Part shown: piece after piece, positions 2 through 4,965 of the stretch
How the letters are laid out: each line of letters starts with the position of its first letter
How positions within the stretch are numbered: position 1 is the first letter of the stretch
Translations under genes and position numbers: made by a program
Assembly (NCBI GenBank): GCA_938041655.1
Contig: CALISW010000148.1
Span: 1 to 11,687 of the forward strand
DNA length: 11,687 nucleotides
Direction of reading: 5' to 3'
Source of the DNA: an uncultured Thiotrichales bacterium
GTDB lineage: Bacteria > Pseudomonadota > Gammaproteobacteria > CAZUMV01
The notes under the pieces: model-generated
Told to the model about the DNA's origin: nothing
The model's database searches: none
What the model saw: the letters and a program-made list of their open reading frames with translations, nothing else

Positions 2-883
2 GATGTACCAGTGGGTAAGTATTCTCACAAAGACATCTCACGTCATGCAGACATGTCAGTGCTTGATGGTCTTGACGGCTTGTTGGAATCTTTTCCAAAA
101 TTAAGCCGTAAAGGTAATCGTGAACTAGGTAGAAAAGCAGCATTGCAGTGCGGAACATTGGGTGGTGGAAACCACTTCATTGAAATCTGCCTGGATACTG
201 AAGATCGTGTGTGGGTGATGTTGCATTCAGGTTCACGTGGTATTGGAAACGTTATCGGTCGTTACTTCATCGAATTGGCGAAAGAAGATATGCGTGTCCA
301 CCACATCAACCTGAAAGATCGTAACCTGGCGTATTTGAGCGAAGGTACGAAGCACTTCGATGATTACGTGACAGCGGTAAGTTGGGCGCAAAACTACGCG
401 CGCGCAAACCGCGATACGATGATGAAGCTGGTTCTGAATGTACTACGACGCCACTTGGGCAAGTTTGGTATTAAGGAACAAGCGATCAATTGTCATCACA
501 ACTACGTGCAAAAAGAGAACCACTTTGGTGAAAATGTTTGGGTAACCCGTAAAGGTGCAGTATCTGCACGTGAGGGTGAGCTAGGCATTATCCCGGGTTC
601 AATGGGTGCACGCAGCTTTATTGTGCGTGGTAAAGGTAACGCCGAATCTTTCCACTCTTGTTCTCATGGTGCGGGTCGTGTGATGTCTCGCGGCAAAGCA
701 AAAGATGCGATCACTGTGGATCAGCACAAGCAAGCTACTGAAGGTGTTGAATGTCGTAAAGATGCCGGTGTACTCGACGAGTCTCCAGCAGCGTACAAAG
801 ACATTGATGCTGTTATGGCGGCGCAAGAGGATTTGGTAGAAGTGGTACATACCCTGAAACAAATCCTGTGCGTGAAAGGTTAG
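2..883 (+). CDS. rtcB: RNA-splicing/repair ligase RtcB, C-terminal ~290 aa. The 5' end lies upstream of the window; frame 2 is open from position 2.
   Basis: The translated ORF carries the RtcB signature GGGNHFIE and the conserved SHGAGR and NCHHNY motifs. No start codon is reachable in frame inside the window. Confidence 0.9.
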   Translation, partial: DVPVGKYSHKDISRHADMSVLDGLDGLLESFPKLSRKGNRELGRKAALQCGTLGGGNHFIEICLDTEDRVWVMLHSGSRGIGNVIGRYFIELAKEDMRVHHINLKDRNLAYLSEGTKHFDDYVTAVSWAQNYARANRDTMMKLVLNVLRRHLGKFGIKEQAINCHHNYVQKENHFGENVWVTRKGAVSAREGELGIIPGSMGARSFIVRGKGNAESFHSCSHGAGRVMSRGKAKDAITVDQHKQATEGVECRKDAGVLDESPAAYKDIDAVMAAQEDLVEVVHTLKQILCVKG

Positions 884-914: not shown

Positions 915-940
915 CCGGGCAGTCTCTGCCCGGCATTTTT
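915..940 (+). terminator. Rho-independent terminator after rtcB
   Basis: Hairpin ccgggcag-tctc-tgcccgg (915-933) is followed by cattttt (934-940). Confidence 0.6.
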
Positions 941-1013
941 GGCTCATGGCATAGTGGCTGTGCAGCGGGCTTTTAACCCGCAGAGATAGGTTCGATTCCT
1001 ATTGGGCCAACCA
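940..1013 (+). tRNA. tRNA-Lys (anticodon TTT), CCA encoded
   Basis: Hand fold. Acceptor tggctca/tgggcca with one G-U pair. D-stem gcat/gtgc with a 7-nt loop containing GG. Anticodon arm gcggg-cttttaa-cccgc, which matches the E. coli Lys loop. T-arm atagg-ttcgatt-cctat. Discriminator A, then CCA. Confidence 0.8.
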
Positions 1014-1019
1014 AATTAC

Positions 1020-1093
1020 GCGGGCATAGCTCAATGGTAGAGCGATAGGTTGCCAACTTGTTGATGTGGTTTCGATTACCACTGTCCGCTCCA
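1020..1093 (+). tRNA. tRNA-Gly (anticodon GCC), CCA encoded
   Basis: Acceptor gcgggca/tgtccgc. D-arm tagctcaatggtagagc closely resembles E. coli tRNA-Gly. Anticodon loop ttgccaa. T-arm gtggt-ttcgatt-accac. Confidence 0.85.
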
Positions 1094-1099
1094 AATAAT

Positions 1100-1175
1100 T
1101 ACTCGATAGCTCAATTGGAAGAGTGCTGTTCTTACACATCAGAGGTTGTCGGTTCGATCCCGACTCGAGTAACCA
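1100..1175 (+). tRNA. tRNA-Val (anticodon TAC), CCA encoded
   Basis: Acceptor tactcga/tcgagta is perfect. D-arm gctc-aattggaa-gagt. Anticodon arm ctgtt-cttacac-atcag has a U-U mismatch at 30:40. T-arm gtcgg-ttcgatc-ccgac. Confidence 0.75.
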
Positions 1176-1337
1176 CATTCGTATCACCGAGACGGTGATG
1201 CACGGCGTGAAACTTCACGCTAAACCATGGTCAAGACGGTTCATTATTTAGCGGCTTTGGGTTCTTTGAGTCCCGGCTGGCGTGCAAGTGCCTTGCATGT
1301 TGTACGTACCAAATAATGTTCACGCTTAACCGCCAAC

Positions 1338-1411
1338 TGGGAATTAGCTCAAATGGGTAGAGCAACAGAATCATAATCTGTGTGTTGTCGGTTCGATTCC
1401 GACATTCTCCA
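1338..1411 (+). tRNA. tRNA with CAT anticodon (elongator Met or Ile2/lysidine type), no CCA encoded
   Basis: D-arm gctc-aaatgggta-gagc. Anticodon arm acaga-atcataa-tctgt is perfect. T-arm gtcgg-ttcgatt-ccgac. Acceptor tgggaat/attctcc has a U1-C72 mismatch. Confidence 0.7.
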
Positions 1412-1474: not shown

Positions 1475-1788
1475 AGAAATCGCCCACAACGCGCTCGTTT
1501 CCCGTATCAGTTTTGAAATTCGATGTTTGAGTTTCTCTATTGGTACAGCGACGTGATCGCCGGTTGATATCGGTCTGATGAGAGCGATCTTGTATCAACA
1601 TTTCTTCCGACAAGATTAGATCCATGCGGTTTGTGGTTCGGTCGCGTTCGACGATCTGTTCATAGTTGATTCGACTCATCAACGTTATTGATCCGCTTTT
1701 TCTTCGTGGAAATGAGCGCACCTAAATTTTTTATGCCTGTGGTTTTGTAGCCATGGGGTTTTTTATCAACCAACCAAAAGGAGGTGAT

Positions 1789-3081
1789 ATGTCTATAGGC
1801 GCTGATAACAAGGCGGAAGTTGAACGGGTGATTAATTTGCGAAAAGCCAGAGCAGTGCAAGACAGCAAACAATCACCTCGTTCACAAAGCAAAATCATGC
1901 CGTTTAAACACGGTTCTATTAACGAAAAAGGAGAACGTAGTATGTTATTTTTTTCAACTTTTATTGTGCGTAAGCACGAACGCGGTCTCCTGTACAAGAA
2001 TGGCGATTTTATTCGTTTCTTGCTACCGGGGACTTACCGCTACTTCAATTTGCTACGCCGTTACACGGTGGAGCGCTTTGATGCGAGCACACCGGCATTC
2101 GATCACCGATTGATCGACTACCTGGTTGAAGCTGAGCGAGACTCGGTAGATCAACTGTTTGAGGTCATTCAAACCGCAGCGGACGAAATTGCGGTGGTTT
2201 ACTTAAACGAACAGGTAGATACCGTACTTGGACCAGCACAGCGAAAGCTCTATTGGAAAGGGTTGGTGACCACACGAGTAGAAGTGTTTAAGACCAATGA
2301 GAGTCTTGAGCTTGAGCCACGTCTGGCAAAACGTTTGATTACAGGTGCTGATGCACGTGTGCTTAATCTTGCTGACCGTGTGGTCTACGCGCGTATCGTT
2401 CCAGAAAGCCACATCGGTTTGTTCTACGTTGACGGTGTACTCACCAAGACGTTGGATGCCGGTATGCACGCCTTCTGGAAGAATGACCGAGCGTTGAATA
2501 TTGATTTGGTAGATCTTCGTGTGAAAACACTCGAAGTACAGGGTCAGGAAATCCTGACCAAGGACAAAGTTAATCTTCGGATTAACGTGACCGCTACCTA
2601 CCAATTTGAAGATGCGCTCAAAGCCATTCGAACGGTTAAAGACCCATTGGATCACTTGTATAAGGAAATCCAGTTTGGTCTTCGTGCTGTTGTAGGTACA
2701 CGCACACTTGATGCCTTACTCGAGGACAAAACTGCTATTGACCGTACAGTGGCAGAGTACCTTGGAACACGCTTTGCCGACATCGGTATCGCGGTTCGCA
2801 GTATTGGTGTTAAGGACATCATCTTGCCAGGTGATATGAAAGACTTGCTTGGCAAAGTGGTGGAAGCTGAAAAAGCGGCACAAGCGAATGTTATTCGTCG
2901 CCGTGAAGAAACAAACGCAACTCGCTCATTGCTCAACACCGCGAAAGTGATGGAAAGTAATGCTGTGGCATTGCGTTTGAAAGAACTCGAGACCCTGGAA
3001 AAAGTGACAGAGAACGTTGGCAAACTCACTGTTCACGGTGGTCTTGATGGTGTGCTCAATGATCTGGTTCGCTTGAAGTAG
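1789..3081 (+). CDS. SPFH/band-7 (stomatin/prohibitin/HflKC-like) domain protein. A strong SD (GGAGG at 1780-1784) precedes ATG 1789. An alternative internal start at 1942 (MLFFSTFIV...) also has an AGGAG SD.
   Basis: A 442-aa ORF. The central region shows SPFH hallmarks (…LRINVTATYQFEDALKAIRTV…; …VVEAEKAAQANVIRRREETNA…), which are typical of band-7 family C-termini. Confidence 0.8.
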   Translation: MSIGADNKAEVERVINLRKARAVQDSKQSPRSQSKIMPFKHGSINEKGERSMLFFSTFIVRKHERGLLYKNGDFIRFLLPGTYRYFNLLRRYTVERFDASTPAFDHRLIDYLVEAERDSVDQLFEVIQTAADEIAVVYLNEQVDTVLGPAQRKLYWKGLVTTRVEVFKTNESLELEPRLAKRLITGADARVLNLADRVVYARIVPESHIGLFYVDGVLTKTLDAGMHAFWKNDRALNIDLVDLRVKTLEVQGQEILTKDKVNLRINVTATYQFEDALKAIRTVKDPLDHLYKEIQFGLRAVVGTRTLDALLEDKTAIDRTVAEYLGTRFADIGIAVRSIGVKDIILPGDMKDLLGKVVEAEKAAQANVIRRREETNATRSLLNTAKVMESNAVALRLKELETLEKVTENVGKLTVHGGLDGVLNDLVRLK

Positions 3082-3155: not shown

Positions 3156-3231
3156 GGTACGCTGGGTGTAAGTTAACACCATCATGCTCATAACATGGAT
3201 GATCGTGGTTCAAATCCACGGCGTACCACCA
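3156..3231 (+). tRNA. tRNA with CAT anticodon (Met or Ile2), CCA encoded
   Basis: Acceptor ggtacgc/gcgtacc is perfect. D-stem ggtg/cacc with loop taagttaa, which has no GG. Anticodon arm tcatg-ctcataa-catgg. T-arm cgtgg-ttcaaat-ccacg. Confidence 0.75.
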
Positions 3232-3233
3232 CA

Positions 3234-3309
3234 CGATGCATAGCTCAATTGGAAGAGCACCCTGCTACGAACGGGGAGGTTGTAGGTTCGAATCCTGCTG
3301 TGTCGTCCA
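3234..3309 (+). tRNA. tRNA-Arg (anticodon ACG), CCA encoded
   Basis: Acceptor cgatgca/tgtgtcg with two G-U pairs. D-arm gctc-aattggaa-gagc. Anticodon arm ccctg-ctacgaa-cgggg. T-arm gtagg-ttcgaat-cctgc. Confidence 0.8.
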
Positions 3310-3316
3310 TTTTTAT

Positions 3317-3390
3317 TCGGTGCTGGTCTAATGGGAAGACACGAGACTTTGACTTTCGTGATCGTGGTTCGAATCCACGGCGCCGATCCA
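3317..3390 (+). tRNA. tRNA-Gln (anticodon TTG), CCA encoded
   Basis: Acceptor tcggtgc/gcgccga. D-arm gtct-aatggga-agac. Anticodon arm cgaga-ctttgac-tttcg. T-arm cgtgg-ttcgaat-ccacg. Confidence 0.8.
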
Positions 3391-3392
3391 AT

Positions 3393-3463
3393 GCACTTGT
3401 CTGTTGGACAGCGAGAAGATTCCAAACCTTCAAGACTGGGTTCGAATCCTAGCAAGTGCTCCA
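3393..3463 (+). tRNA. Atypical tRNA-like gene with a CCA (Trp) anticodon, a miniaturised D-arm and a 31:39 A-C mismatch. It may be a pseudo-tRNA or a non-canonical tRNA.
   Basis: Acceptor gcacttg/caagtgc is perfect and CCA is encoded. T-arm ctggg-ttcgaat-cctag. Anticodon region gaaga-ttccaaa-ccttc resembles the E. coli Trp loop cTCCAAAa. The D-region is only about 15 nt (ctgt-tgg-acag). Confidence 0.45.
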
Positions 3464-3467
3464 ATTT

Positions 3468-3542
3468 GATGTTGTGGCTGAATGGTTAGGCGCGAGACTG
3501 CAAATCTTGTTTATTCCGGTTCAAGTCCGGACGACATCTCCA
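3468..3542 (+). tRNA. tRNA-Cys (anticodon GCA), CCA encoded
   Basis: Acceptor gatgttg/cgacatc. D-arm gctg-aatggtt-aggc. Anticodon arm cgaga-ctgcaaa-tcttg. T-arm tccgg-ttcaagt-ccgga. Confidence 0.8.
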
Positions 3543-3548
3543 AATACT

Positions 3549-3624
3549 ATCCTCGAAGGTCAACTGGATGAGCACCGAGCTTCTAACTCGGCGGTTTCAG
3601 GTTCGAGTCCTGACGGGGATGCCA
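3549..3624 (+). tRNA. tRNA-Arg (anticodon TCT), CCA encoded
   Basis: Acceptor atcctcg/cggggat. Anticodon arm ccgag-cttctaa-ctcgg is perfect. T-arm tcagg-ttcgagt-cctga. The D-stem has one mismatch. Confidence 0.8.
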
Positions 3625-3707
3625 ACTTAAAGTTTTTTTGAGGCAGGGCGCGTGTTGCACATCTGCGGGTGTAACCGGTGTTTGCGCACCTCGGTACCCG
3701 AATGGGT

Positions 3708-3738
3708 GGACAATAGAGCGTTGCTCCGTCCTGTTTTG
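3708..3738 (+). terminator. Candidate intrinsic terminator between the tRNA sub-clusters
   Basis: Nested hairpin ggac-aata-gagc-gtt-gctc-c-gtcc followed by tgttttg. Confidence 0.35.
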
Positions 3739-3757
3739 AAAATCCAATATTACTTAC

Positions 3758-3836
3758 AGCCGCCTGAAGGGAATTGGCTATACCTACCTGTCTTAGAAAC
3801 AGGTGTTTCTCGGTTCGAGTCCGAGGGCGGCTACCA
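3758..3836 (+). tRNA. tRNA with Leu anticodon TAG but type-I architecture (5-nt variable loop). It has a Leu-like D-arm and A73; CCA is encoded.
   Basis: Acceptor agccgcc/ggcggct is perfect with A1-U72. D-region tgaagggaattggctatacct carries a GAATTGG D-loop like E. coli tRNA-Leu. Anticodon arm cctgt-cttagaa-acagg is perfect. Variable loop tgttt. T-arm ctcgg-ttcgagt-ccgag. Confidence 0.65.
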
Positions 3837-3841
3837 ACTTT

Positions 3842-3920
3842 ATGGACCTGATGGGAATTGGTTATACCTCGGTGTTTCAAACTCACCGGCATCCCGGTTC
3901 GACTCCGGGGGTCCATACCA
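3842..3920 (+). tRNA. Paralogous type-I tRNA with Leu anticodon CAA, a U-U at 31:39, A73 and CCA encoded
   Basis: Acceptor atggacc/ggtccat is perfect. D-region tgatgggaattggttatacct. Anticodon arm ggtgt-ttcaaac-tcacc. Variable loop ggcat. T-arm cccgg-ttcgact-ccggg. Confidence 0.6.
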
Positions 3921-3926
3921 ACACAC

Positions 3927-4004
3927 GCGCAGCTGATGGGAACTGGCATACCTGGTTGATTTAAAACCAACCGTTTCCGCGTTCGATCCGCGGGCTGCGC
4001 ACCA
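3927..4004 (+). tRNA. Paralogous type-I tRNA with Leu anticodon TAA, an A-C at 31:39, A73 and CCA encoded
   Basis: Acceptor gcgcagc/gctgcgc is perfect. D-region tgatgggaactggcatacct. Anticodon arm gttga-tttaaaa-ccaac. Variable loop cgttt. T-arm ccgcg-ttcgatc-cgcgg. Confidence 0.6.
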
Positions 4005-4009
4005 TCATT

Positions 4010-4227
4010 GGGGACGTTTGCAAATGGATGCTACTACCAAAAACGTAAGTGACCGGGTAGCGGGTAACACCGGCGTCGGCTAAGTGAACTAGCGGTATGG
4101 TTGAGGATGGCAGGTGACTGCTCTGCGTAAGGGTTACTCACTGGCGCCCGTTTCCAACGACTGGTTCTTCCGGTAGTAATGCACCGGTACTGACGTTATG
4201 CGGGTTCGATACCCGTCGTCTCCACCA
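4010..4227 (+). pseudogene. Split or interrupted tRNA. A 5' acceptor with U8 and a D-arm lies at 4010-4038. A long variable arm, T-arm, 3' acceptor and CCA lie at 4172-4227. About 133 nt intervene at the anticodon-loop position.
   Basis: ggggacg (4010-4016) pairs 7/7 (one G-U) with cgtctcc (4217-4223), followed by A and CCA. D-hairpin gca-aatgga-tgc has GG in the loop. The 5' strand actacc (4033-4038) pairs with ggtagt (4172-4177). T-arm gcggg-ttcgata-cccgt (4200-4216). No uninterrupted tRNA ending at 4227 can be folded. Confidence 0.4.
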
Positions 4228-4233
4228 ATTATT

Positions 4234-4317
4234 ACGGGTGTGGTGAAACGGTATACACGCTGTCGCGAGAAGGCAGTGGCACAAGTCTTGTCGGTTCGAC
4301 TCCGGCCACCCGTACCA
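4234..4317 (+). tRNA. Type-II tRNA-Leu (anticodon GAG) with a 13-nt variable arm and the unusual C33; CCA is encoded.
   Basis: Acceptor acgggtg/cacccgt is perfect. D-arm gtg-aaacggtata-cac. Anticodon arm ctgtc-gcgagaa-ggcag. Variable arm tggcacaagtctt. T-arm gtcgg-ttcgact-ccggc. Discriminator A. Confidence 0.6.
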
Positions 4318-4373: not shown

Positions 4374-4946
4374 ATGAATACGTTAATCCTTAAGTTGGAC
4401 ATTGCTGGTCAACCAGTCGGCTGGATTTCACGAGAAGAAGGCGCATTGCTTTATTGTCGTGATCAAGTTGCTTGGGAAGCGGGCGAACAAGTGGTTCGTT
4501 TGCATGGCGGAGAGTCTCGTCTAACTGGTACGAGATCTTTTCTGGATATCAATACGATTGTCGCTACCCGATCGCATGACAAAGGTCTTCTGAGCAAAGG
4601 CGATGTTCCATGTCTGACGAATAAGCAATTATTCTCTCGCGACGAATACATGTGTATGTACTGCGGGAAGCAGTACGGTAATTCATTACTGACACGCGAT
4701 CATGTTATGCCCTTGTCACGAGGAGGTCTAGATATTTGGGAAAATGTCGTTACGGCATGCCGCTCATGTAATCAGACCAAAGACAATGCGTTATTGAGCG
4801 AGATCAATATGAAATTAATCGCAGTCCCATACGCACCTAATCGTGCAGAGGGATTGATTTTAACTAACCGCAGAATTTTAGCGGACCAAATGGCATTCCT
4901 TAAAACCCGGGTAGGGAAGGGAAGTCGACTGCGAGTCGCAGCGTAG
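4374..4946 (+). CDS. HNH endonuclease
   Basis: A 190-aa ORF with a canonical HNH core CMYCGK…TRDHVMPLSRGG…WENVVTACRSCNQTK. An AGGA-type RBS precedes the ATG. Confidence 0.85.
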   Translation: MNTLILKLDIAGQPVGWISREEGALLYCRDQVAWEAGEQVVRLHGGESRLTGTRSFLDINTIVATRSHDKGLLSKGDVPCLTNKQLFSRDEYMCMYCGKQYGNSLLTRDHVMPLSRGGLDIWENVVTACRSCNQTKDNALLSEINMKLIAVPYAPNRAEGLILTNRRILADQMAFLKTRVGKGSRLRVAA

Positions 4947-4965
4947 CTGCGGCTTGGATTTTTTT
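4927..4965 (+). terminator. Tandem hairpins followed by a T-run after the HNH gene
   Basis: ctgcg-agt-cgcag and gcagc-gta-gctgc are followed by ggcttggattttttt. Confidence 0.4.

Follow-up and report, generated by a model that had tools for sequence, protein, structure and literature searches.

Can a bacterial tRNA with a leucine anticodon and no long variable arm serve as a leucine tRNA, and where would such a tRNA come from? The question is raised by an 11,687-nt contig of an uncultured Thiotrichales bacterium (GenBank CALISW010000148.1, assembly GCA_938041655.1), the whole of which is called the window here. An initial annotation, made from the letters alone, had described three tandem tRNA genes with Leu anticodons and no long variable arm, and this description was borne out by ARAGORN calls, by variable loops of 5 nt and by covariation among related sequences. 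The genes are:

3758..3836, + strand: tRNA-Leu(UAG), type I; 76 nt plus CCA, variable loop UGUUU, A73 (ARAGORN)
3842..3920, + strand: tRNA-Leu(CAA), type I; 76 nt plus CCA, variable loop GGCAU, U31.U39 mismatch, A73 (ARAGORN)
3927..4004, + strand: tRNA-Leu(UAA), type I; 75 nt plus CCA, variable loop CGUUU, A31.C39 mismatch, A73 (ARAGORN)

Comparison of the sequences suggests that the three genes are probably working leucine isoacceptors and members of a type I tRNA-Leu lineage that is carried on phages and mobile tRNA arrays, called the family below. Genuine Leu isoacceptors with a minimal body were one of the readings offered initially, and this reading fits best with the Leu anticodons, the class II-like D arm and A73, features from which leucylation would be expected.

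Direct parsing gave each gene an acceptor stem of 7 bp, an anticodon stem of 5 bp, an anticodon loop of 7 nt, a variable loop of 5 nt, a T stem of 5 bp, the T loop TTCGA and A73. The genes are separated by spacers of 5 to 6 nt, as seen both by ARAGORN and by parsing. The length of 76 nt before CCA that had been given for all three holds for the UAG and CAA genes but not for the UAA gene, which has 75 nt. The variable loops had been given as 4 to 5 nt; they are short, but all three are exactly 5 nt (TGTTT, GGCAT, CGTTT). The 3-bp D stem, the Leu-like D loop and A73 were seen again by parsing and in the family alignment, which was compared with 73 class II tRNA-Leu. The D region common to the three genes is TGA-x-GGG-AAYTGG-Y(W)AT-ACCT, although the UAA gene, whose D loop is one nucleotide shorter than those of the UAG and CAA genes, does not fit the near-identical pattern that had been proposed. 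In the alignment, the UAG and CAA genes and their orthologs from metagenome-assembled genomes (MAGs) have one D-loop nucleotide more than the phage members of the family. The compensating changes reported in the stems were confirmed, and the two 31:39 mismatches, U-U in the CAA gene and A-C in the UAA gene, are real.

The three genes had been called clear duplicates. This is true in a loose sense, as paralogs of 72 to 76% identity, but each has a closer relative elsewhere. The nearest is in each case the gene with the same anticodon in L004, an array in another Thiotrichales MAG (loci with family members are numbered with the letter L): 99% identity for UAG, 95% for CAA and 92% for UAA. Close relatives of the UAG, CAA and UAA genes also include an L010 gene with anticodon CAG (89%), an L005 gene with CAG (90%) and an L005 gene with CAA (82%), respectively. 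Because each gene has a closer ortholog (92 to 99%) in other arrays, the three are, judged by sequence identity, old paralogs and not recent tandem copies. The U31.U39 mismatch of the CAA gene is also present in the L004 ortholog. The A31.C39 mismatch of the UAA gene is private to the window, the same pair in L004 being G-C.

Whether these sequences fold as tRNAs was not decided by thermodynamics. Single-sequence folding returned an approximate cloverleaf for the CAA gene only, with z-scores from -0.9 to -2.5, and is uninformative for tRNAs, so covariation was used. The motif-bearing set comprised 138 ARAGORN-called tRNAs (118 unique) of 75 to 80 nt from 134 loci, including the window, and pairs were counted in 110 distinct sequences under the model of a cloverleaf with a 5-nt variable loop. 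In these 110 sequences, 97.0% of the cells were able to pair, compared with 59.5% in shuffles, and 17 of the 20 pairs showed changes on both sides. The covariation score was 0.946 against 0.199 in shuffles, none of 500 shuffles scored as high, and sliding the register by 1 to 3 columns lowered the score to 0.17 or less. Pairing reached 99.5% in the acceptor helix, 97.6% in the anticodon helix and 99.8% in the T helix. The variable loop was 5 nt in 110 of 114 members. U8, G18G19, the T loop TTCRA and a 7-nt anticodon loop containing U33 are likewise conserved. The family is thus a real tRNA cloverleaf under selection. A fold with a normal long arm, which would have overturned the initial description, was rejected: the register supported by covariation leaves a 5-nt loop with no room for an arm.

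The search pattern also matched 12 sites without an ARAGORN call. Five were chance matches in coding DNA, four were cut by locus ends (their visible anticodons are Leu), and one had a weak stem and a CAA anticodon. At L041:402-421 (-), a family D arm is interrupted right after the start of the anticodon loop, possibly by an insertion or intron. At L058:976-995 (+), a family D arm is followed by an aberrant loop, TGACAAA, without a clear Leu anticodon.

The general Rfam tRNA model (RF00005), which had been suggested as a check, gave a divided result. The UAG gene scored 40.6 bits, above the gathering score of 29 bits, but the CAA gene fell below the gathering score and the UAA gene gave no match. 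The CAA gene was also tried as a tRNA-Sec; this candidate was rejected, with 21 bits against a gathering score of 47 and many mismatched pairs. Two of three genes below the general threshold, together with the 31:39 mismatch in two of three, could be taken as marks of decaying or nonfunctional copies in a redundant array; such arrays are known to hold tRNA pseudogenes (PMC4758250), and the relatives L058 and L041, with their aberrant and interrupted anticodon loops, would suit the same idea. Decay is nevertheless highly improbable. Only 1 of 12 family members in five other loci reached the gathering score, and the misses include members from cultured phages; the low score is thus a trait of the family, attributable to its extra D-stem nucleotide (described below). 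The compensatory substitutions extend across the family, in which 97% of cells pair, and orthologs 92 to 99% identical persist in other arrays. For the family as a whole, covariation excludes both a hidden long arm and pseudogene decay.

The amino acid identity was approached through the anticodons. All 138 motif-bearing tRNAs carry Leu anticodons (UAG, 51; CAA, 33; UAA, 27; GAG, 17; CAG, 9; one has an 8-nt loop), an independent result, since the search pattern excluded the anticodon. When the D motif was matched with 3 mismatches against 1442 unique tRNAs of every isotype from the same loci, the 134 matches were all Leu. One body may be found with several Leu anticodons: besides the window UAG gene and the L010 CAG gene (89%), the window CAA gene and the L005 CAG gene (90%) and the window UAA gene and the L005 CAA gene (82%), the window CAA gene is 80% identical to an L005 gene with UAA. 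Such switching is expected of tRNAs whose synthetase does not read the anticodon and in which selection bars nothing but a move out of the leucine box.

The conserved bases point in the same direction. Outside the search pattern, A73 (114 of 114), U48, G45, C56 and A35 are invariant; inside it, U8, A14, A15, G18, G19 and A20a are. The identity set of the Escherichia coli leucyl-tRNA synthetase (LeuRS) consists of A73, A14, the A15-U48 Levitt pair, G18G19, A20a and contacts of the D loop with the T loop (PMC9976931; PMC6614811). For this enzyme the long arm and the anticodon are dispensable, and a minimal armless tRNA-Leu can still be charged (PMC9976931; PMC6614811). The match between the invariant bases of the family and this published set supports leucine identity. 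The 3:70 pair is never G.U in the family, which argues against alanine identity.

The initial annotation had also allowed for recoding, in which the tRNAs would carry a different amino acid. The noncanonical body, the poor score with the general tRNA model and the weak resemblance of the CAA gene to the tRNA-Sec model (21 bits) would be in keeping with this, but the anticodons are confined to the leucine set in the 134 to 138 members, and the family has neither G3.U70, as an alternative identity mark, nor the long arm for seryl-tRNA synthetase. The synthetases that accept A73 and a short arm (those for Val, Ile, Met, Lys, Phe and Arg) read the anticodon (PMC9976931). Charging with another amino acid is therefore scarcely credible.

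Arm loss is a matter of leucine tRNAs within these loci. The long arm was kept by 43 of 44 tRNA-Tyr and 118 of 120 tRNA-Ser of the same loci, whereas 221 of 295 tRNA-Leu were 80 nt or shorter, as is expected if LeuRS alone tolerates the loss. Short and long tRNA-Leu of one locus shared an anticodon in only 7 of 48 loci, indicating that the two kinds divide the decoding work. The window is such a case, with UAG, CAA and UAA on short tRNAs and GAG on a long one, and the class II tRNA-Leu(GAG) together with the three type I genes makes a complete leucine anticodon set.

The origin of the family can be read from its D arm. The family and class II tRNA-Leu have a common layout: U8 G9, a 3-bp D stem, G13.A22, and A14 A15 Y16 U17 G18 G19 N20 A20a N21. 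In the 73 class II tRNA-Leu of the same loci, the typical D region is TG-GTG-G-AATTGG-TAG-A-CAC. Family members have an extra nucleotide between G9 and the G11-C24 pair, which is A in 63 sequences, C in 35 and U in 16, and never G. Two arrangements are possible: either U25, which is invariant, pairs with the invariant A that precedes the extra base, so that the extra base forms a bulge, or U25 pairs with the extra base, as 56% of the sequences would allow. The N-G-N-N-U variable loop can be equated with the bases on either side of the hairpin in class II tRNA-Leu, with N44, G45 and U48 kept. All three window genes match the pattern of the family, with the D motif and its extra nucleotide, an N-G-N-N-U loop, A73 and a Leu anticodon. 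The simplest history suggested by this alignment would be loss of the hairpin from a class II tRNA-Leu, together with the gain of a nucleotide on the 5' side of its D stem.

tRNA-Leu may have lost the arm on more than one occasion, because a second, different armless type exists. This type is common in phage contigs and has a canonical-looking D arm, TAGCCCAAYTGGCAGAGGC, the variable loop ACAGU and A73. It was seen in L021, L023, L040, L083, L085, L091, L093, L131 and other loci, which hold about 85 further tRNA-Leu of 80 nt or shorter against 73 class II genes.

The spread of the family was examined in several collections. The initial statement that bacterial and phage tRNA-Leu are class II did not hold: the short-arm type was present in 97 phage records and at least 120 stretches from IMG/VR, and examples have been published. 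The whole window gave no close match by megablast against 50,697 phage records. A sensitive BLAST search with the three Leu genes matched the 97 records, which belong to phages of Acinetobacter (43, T4-like) and Streptomyces (40), with the rest from Klebsiella, Pseudomonas, Aeromonas, Salmonella, Serratia and Salicola. In GenBank these matches are mostly annotated as tRNA-Leu, and some records carry no annotation. Three records were inspected, those of Salmonella phage Arash, Acinetobacter phage AM101 and Klebsiella phage KP13-16; each has a 75-nt (plus CCA) tRNA-Leu(UAG) with the family D arm and a 5-nt variable loop. The family is also present in the cultured Streptomyces phage Jay2Jay. The IMG/VR viral contigs were matched with a slightly relaxed D-arm pattern. 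No match for the window tRNAs was found among the PLSDB plasmids, nor for the KP13-16 member among 5,426 complete E. coli genomes.

A scan for the shared D-region pattern, with one genome per species, found six tRNA arrays. Their MAGs are gammaproteobacterial and belong to Arenicellales, Thiotrichales and Woeseiaceae, with two unclassified, and a pair of the arrays lies inside chromosomal sequences of 3.6 to 3.8 Mb. The nearest relative of the window is L004, in which the order Met-Arg-Gln-Cys-Arg followed by three Leu genes is the same, the tRNAs are 92 to 99% identical and the endonuclease gene of the HNH type is 86% identical.

Several points weigh against the reading of the three genes as working leucine tRNAs. 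The conservation of the D arm is partly circular, as the D arm was the search pattern. A 31:39 mismatch, rare in the family (5 of 110), occurs in two of the three window genes, and the private A.C mismatch may weaken the UAA gene. No sigma-70-like promoter was found on the + strand between 800 and 5100, and the counts from the promoter and terminator scan were at chance level. G37 of E. coli tRNA-Leu is methylated to m1G37 by TrmD. Armless members that read CUN codons mostly have A37 instead of G37 (UAG, A 52 and G 12; CAG, A 12; GAG, A 19 and G 1), which suggests independence from TrmD. Finally, E. coli LeuRS failed in vitro to charge the type I tRNA-Leu(CAA) of Streptomyces (PMC6614811), so that charging by a gammaproteobacterial LeuRS cannot be assumed. 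The core of the Streptomyces tRNA may differ from that of the family, and a working role of the family in Salmonella, Klebsiella, Acinetobacter and Pseudomonas is argued for by its occurrence in their phages.

What kind of element carries the genes is indicated by the rest of the window, which contains the following features around them:

11..883, + strand: RtcB RNA ligase, C-terminal part, cut by the window edge (Pfam PF01139, E 5.9e-100; PHROG 1075)
940..1411, + strand: first tRNA cluster, Lys-UUU, Gly-GCC, Val-UAC and Met-CAU (ARAGORN; Rfam tRNA 56-64 bits)
1753..3081, + strand: SPFH/Band 7 protein between the two tRNA clusters (Pfam PF01145, E 4e-27)
3156..3624, + strand: tRNAs of the second cluster upstream of the Leu genes, Met-CAU, Arg-ACG, Gln-UUG, Cys-GCA and Arg-UCU (ARAGORN; CCA encoded)
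3625..3757, + strand: conserved non-tRNA spacer of 133 nt, from tRNA-Arg(UCU) to the first Leu gene (conservation in L004)
4010..4227, + strand: mini tmRNA-like RNA of 218 nt between Leu-UAA and Leu-GAG (Rfam tmRNA 17 bits, E 9.6e-5, below the gathering score)
4234..4317, + strand: class II tRNA-Leu(GAG) with a short 13-nt variable arm and C33 (ARAGORN; Rfam tRNA 40.5 bits)
4374..4946, + strand: HNH endonuclease directly after the last tRNA (Pfam HNH_5, E 3.9e-15)

ARAGORN found 13 tRNA genes in the window, all on the + strand and all with an encoded CCA, in two clusters (940-1411 and 3156-4317). These 13 genes between 940 and 4317 correspond to 3.8 per kb in a window that is cut at its left edge; a tRNA array unit has been defined by at least 20 tRNA genes at 2 or more per kb (Tran et al. 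2015, PMC4758250). The related array L005 has 22 tRNA genes within 3.5 kb. The order of the island is RtcB, tRNAs, SPFH, tRNAs, mini tmRNA-like RNA and HNH, and the module of RtcB, SPFH and HNH recurs in gammaproteobacterial MAG arrays (L003-L005, L009, L010 and L135). The genes to the right, encoding DUF1287 and an S41 peptidase, look bacterial and had no match to phage protein families. As related arrays sit in chromosomal sequences or in a bacterial gene context (L135), the window is most likely a chromosomal tRNA array island and not a phage genome.

The context of L135, a metagenome contig, is that of a bacterial chromosome, with the array and HNH gene beside glmS, glmU and a symporter. 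In this contig (L135:4998-11998) the array and HNH gene lie about 4 kb downstream of glmS, with glmU and the symporter beyond. This region is known as the attachment site of Tn7, and the array may be cargo of an element that inserts at this site.

The RtcB match covers positions 136-426 of the PF01139 profile, and PHROG 1075 is a tRNA splicing ligase; RtcB homologs were found near the arrays of L003, L005, L009 and L116. SPFH homologs occupy the same place in L005 (69% identity) and L010 (55%). No SPFH protein within tRNA arrays was found in the literature searched. Homologs of the HNH gene lie directly 3' of the Leu genes in L002-L005, L009 and L135. Strict linkage of HNH and Leu genes was rejected, as it holds only in MAG arrays, and the HNH genes of viral loci are 0.3 to 4.6 kb away. 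The sole relevant match of the terminator scan was a terminator-like hairpin at 4932-4956, at the end of the HNH gene.

The Rfam alignment of the tRNA-Leu(GAG) gene at 4234-4317 shows an insertion of 11 nt in the variable region. Its anticodon loop, GCGAGAA, has C33 instead of the near-universal U33. Among the 30 unique tRNA-Leu(GAG) genes that the collected loci contain, 14 share this C33, which was only sporadic in other isotypes. The rare tRNA-Ile anticodon UAU was found at L005:4581-4659, L009:210-288 and L135:11757-11835, and L005 also has a tRNA-Arg(UCG). The same rare isoacceptors have been reported in a mycobacterial cluster (PMC6582537), which hints that arrays of distant phyla share content.

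The mini tmRNA-like RNA falls far short of the usual tmRNA length. The alanine mark G3.U70 is present in its acceptor stem, GGGGACG/CGUCUCC, after which comes ACCA; the T arm is GCGGGTTCGATACCCGT. ARAGORN left it uncalled at default settings and called it only at a relaxed threshold. A copy in the array of an Arenicellales MAG (L003:1676-1899, - strand) is 80% conserved, with a compensatory change at 4:69. No tag reading frame was conserved between the two copies, and no further copies were found by exact-pattern scans of viral and metagenome contigs. The spacer at 3625-3757 is 76% identical over 120 nt, with an indel of 23 nt, to L004:2770-2880 (-), a Thiotrichales locus. It contains no Rfam match and no tRNA, and it may serve in processing, as a promoter or as a small RNA.

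If the three genes are working leucine isoacceptors, their use would involve several steps. The genes, tightly packed and with CCA encoded, would be co-transcribed with their neighbours in the array, and single tRNAs would then be released by RNase P and 3' trimming. The host LeuRS would charge the Leu tRNAs through A73 and the hinge of D and T loops, leaving the anticodon and the arm unread. Codons of the UUR and CUN types would be decoded, with class II tRNA-Leu(GAG) completing the set. The array as a whole would then provide a structurally divergent back-up set of tRNAs with which translation could continue when resident tRNAs are damaged or depleted; by analogy with published systems, this would be its most probable role. 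Infection can be saved by phage tRNAs when a defence cuts tRNAs (PMC11555353, PMC10264068). Phage tRNAs are spread and amplified by homing endonucleases that lie in tRNA regions (PMC13096335), and mycobacterial arrays with a conserved HNH gene have been discussed as putative anti-defence elements (PMC12803027).

The same anti-damage context, including RtcB, would also suit decoys, that is, tRNA-shaped RNAs that bind anticodon nucleases or tRNA-binding toxins and stay outside translation. Such a role has been suggested for phage tRNA-Tyr (PMC13096335), and a mimic of host tRNA-Leu would keep Leu-like anticodon loops as well. It would also be expected to retain the long arm, however, and a decoy sits poorly with the strong constraint on A73, the encoded CCA, the T loop, G18G19 and all stems. 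The anticodon sets moreover complement the class II genes of the same locus without duplicating them. Decoys are accordingly considered very unlikely.

Another explanation concerns the reason for the arm loss and refines the reading as working isoacceptors without replacing it. The loss may have been adaptive, with the altered D stem and missing arm allowing the isoacceptors to escape tRNA-targeting enzymes of host or competitor that recognise or cut the long arm of class II tRNAs, and the array would then be a counter-defence. We regard this as possible but doubtful. Retron-Eco7 and Septu cleave class II tRNA-Tyr in its variable loop, and the tRNA-Tyr of T5 resists through a distinctive variable loop (PMC13096335, citing PMC11555353). 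RtcB, an HNH endonuclease and a tmRNA-like RNA lie in the same array, the family is spread over phages of hosts from several phyla, and tRNA arrays are discussed as a putative anti-defence system (PMC12803027). No bacterial nuclease aimed at the variable arm of tRNA-Leu was found in the literature searched, however, and the restriction of arm loss to Leu fits neutral loss or genome compaction equally well. The bacterial Schlafen that has been studied cuts the anticodon arm, with significant cleavage of the short-variable-loop tRNAs for Lys, Met, Ala, Val, Phe and Ile (PMC13056530); it was also considered as a class II-specific nuclease, a role that these cuts do not support.

The broader form of this idea, by analogy with tRNA-Tyr, would make the armless family a widespread counter-defence of phages and mobile elements, a complete Leu-decoding set that escapes arm-dependent class II enzymes with the needs of LeuRS kept. 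This we think unlikely. If it were true, the family would parallel the escape of phage tRNA-Tyr from retron-Eco7 (PtuAB), and arm-dependent nucleases or modifiers directed at tRNA-Leu would await discovery in bacteria. The likeness to phage tRNA-Tyr lies in a phage-borne tRNA of class II type with an altered variable region and homing endonucleases nearby (PMC11555353, PMC13096335). The two differ in that evasion was demonstrated experimentally for Tyr and is a hypothesis for Leu, and in that the arm is changed there and removed here.

As working leucine isoacceptors, the three genes can be compared with known short-arm tRNA-Leu. They add members to a known but under-described kind and are not a new type of molecule, because short-arm tRNA-Leu have been published from Streptomyces and Mycobacterium and members of the family are deposited as tRNA-Leu in dozens of phage genomes. 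In Streptomyces coelicolor, a type I tRNA-Leu(CAA), charged by the single bacterial LeuRS, is present alongside class II isoacceptors (Fan et al. 2019, PMC6614811). It also has a 5-nt variable loop, the length of which matters there (PMC6614811) and is fixed in 110 of 114 members here. It is encoded by a single chromosomal gene, A73 is no identity element in it, and E. coli LeuRS cannot charge it (PMC6614811), whereas the family has phage or mobile carriage, five to six anticodons, an identity set of the E. coli type and an extra D-stem nucleotide. The two are likened by description, and Streptomyces phages are among the carriers of the family.

A horizontally acquired tRNA cluster of Mycobacterium mucogenicum and M. 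phocaicum contains a tRNA-Leu(UAG) with a short variable loop, mentioned in one sentence (PMC6582537). Its HNH gene, tRNA-Ile(UAU) and tRNA-Arg(UCG) have counterparts here, as L005 and L009 carry HNH and Ile(UAU), and L005 also Arg(UCG). The likeness, again drawn from the description, is limited by an actinobacterial host and the mention of a single isoacceptor (PMC6582537). No Mycobacterium record was returned by the phage and plasmid searches with the window tRNAs. Mycobacterial arrays have a conserved HNH gene within them (PMC12803027, PMC6582537), and the window array has one as well. With tRNA array units (PMC4758250), including those on linear plasmids of M. avium (PMC12803027), the island has in common a dense, same-strand and horizontally mobile arrangement with embedded HNH, and tRNAs that are redundant with the core set and structurally divergent from it. 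Published arrays come from Acidithiobacillus, Firmicutes, Cyanobacteria and Mycobacterium, whereas the lineage of the window is gammaproteobacterial and has RtcB, SPFH and the mini tmRNA-like RNA; no gammaproteobacterial array with these three was found in the literature searched.

Canonical class II tRNA-Leu, those of E. coli, of the same viral loci and of T4 and T5, resemble the family in D-arm layout, A73, U48 and Leu anticodons. They differ in a variable region of 13 to 15 nt with a hairpin, compared with 5 nt and no hairpin in the family, which also has the extra non-G D-stem nucleotide and A37 in most readers of CUN codons. T5 was considered as a classical example of short-arm tRNA-Leu and rejected; its tRNA-Leu(UAG) has 85 nt and is class II. 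The tRNA-Leu of animal mitochondria also have a short variable loop, with A73 and A14 as identity elements (PMC9976931). They are organellar, often structurally relaxed and served by their own LeuRS, and are likened to the family by form only.

A 2023 review describes tRNA-Leu as long-armed everywhere except in animal mitochondria (PMC9976931), and the classical phage T5 fits this rule. No paper on armless tRNA-Leu as a family of phages and mobile elements, on its extra D-stem nucleotide or on its strict restriction to leucine was found in the full-text searches. Taken alone, the window is an ordinary new member of the armless family, and its interest lies in what the family as a whole implies. 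Phages and mobile tRNA arrays from at least two bacterial phyla commonly carry armless tRNA-Leu. For annotation, this means that the general Rfam tRNA model misses most members and that several GenBank phage records leave the gene unannotated. The hypothesis for phage-host conflict would be that mobile tRNAs are adapted to tRNA-targeting defences in their shape and not in the anticodon loops alone. As regards tRNA identity, the family amounts to an experiment of nature in which LeuRS identity would reside in A73 and the hinge and not in the arm, with the cultured hosts as test systems.

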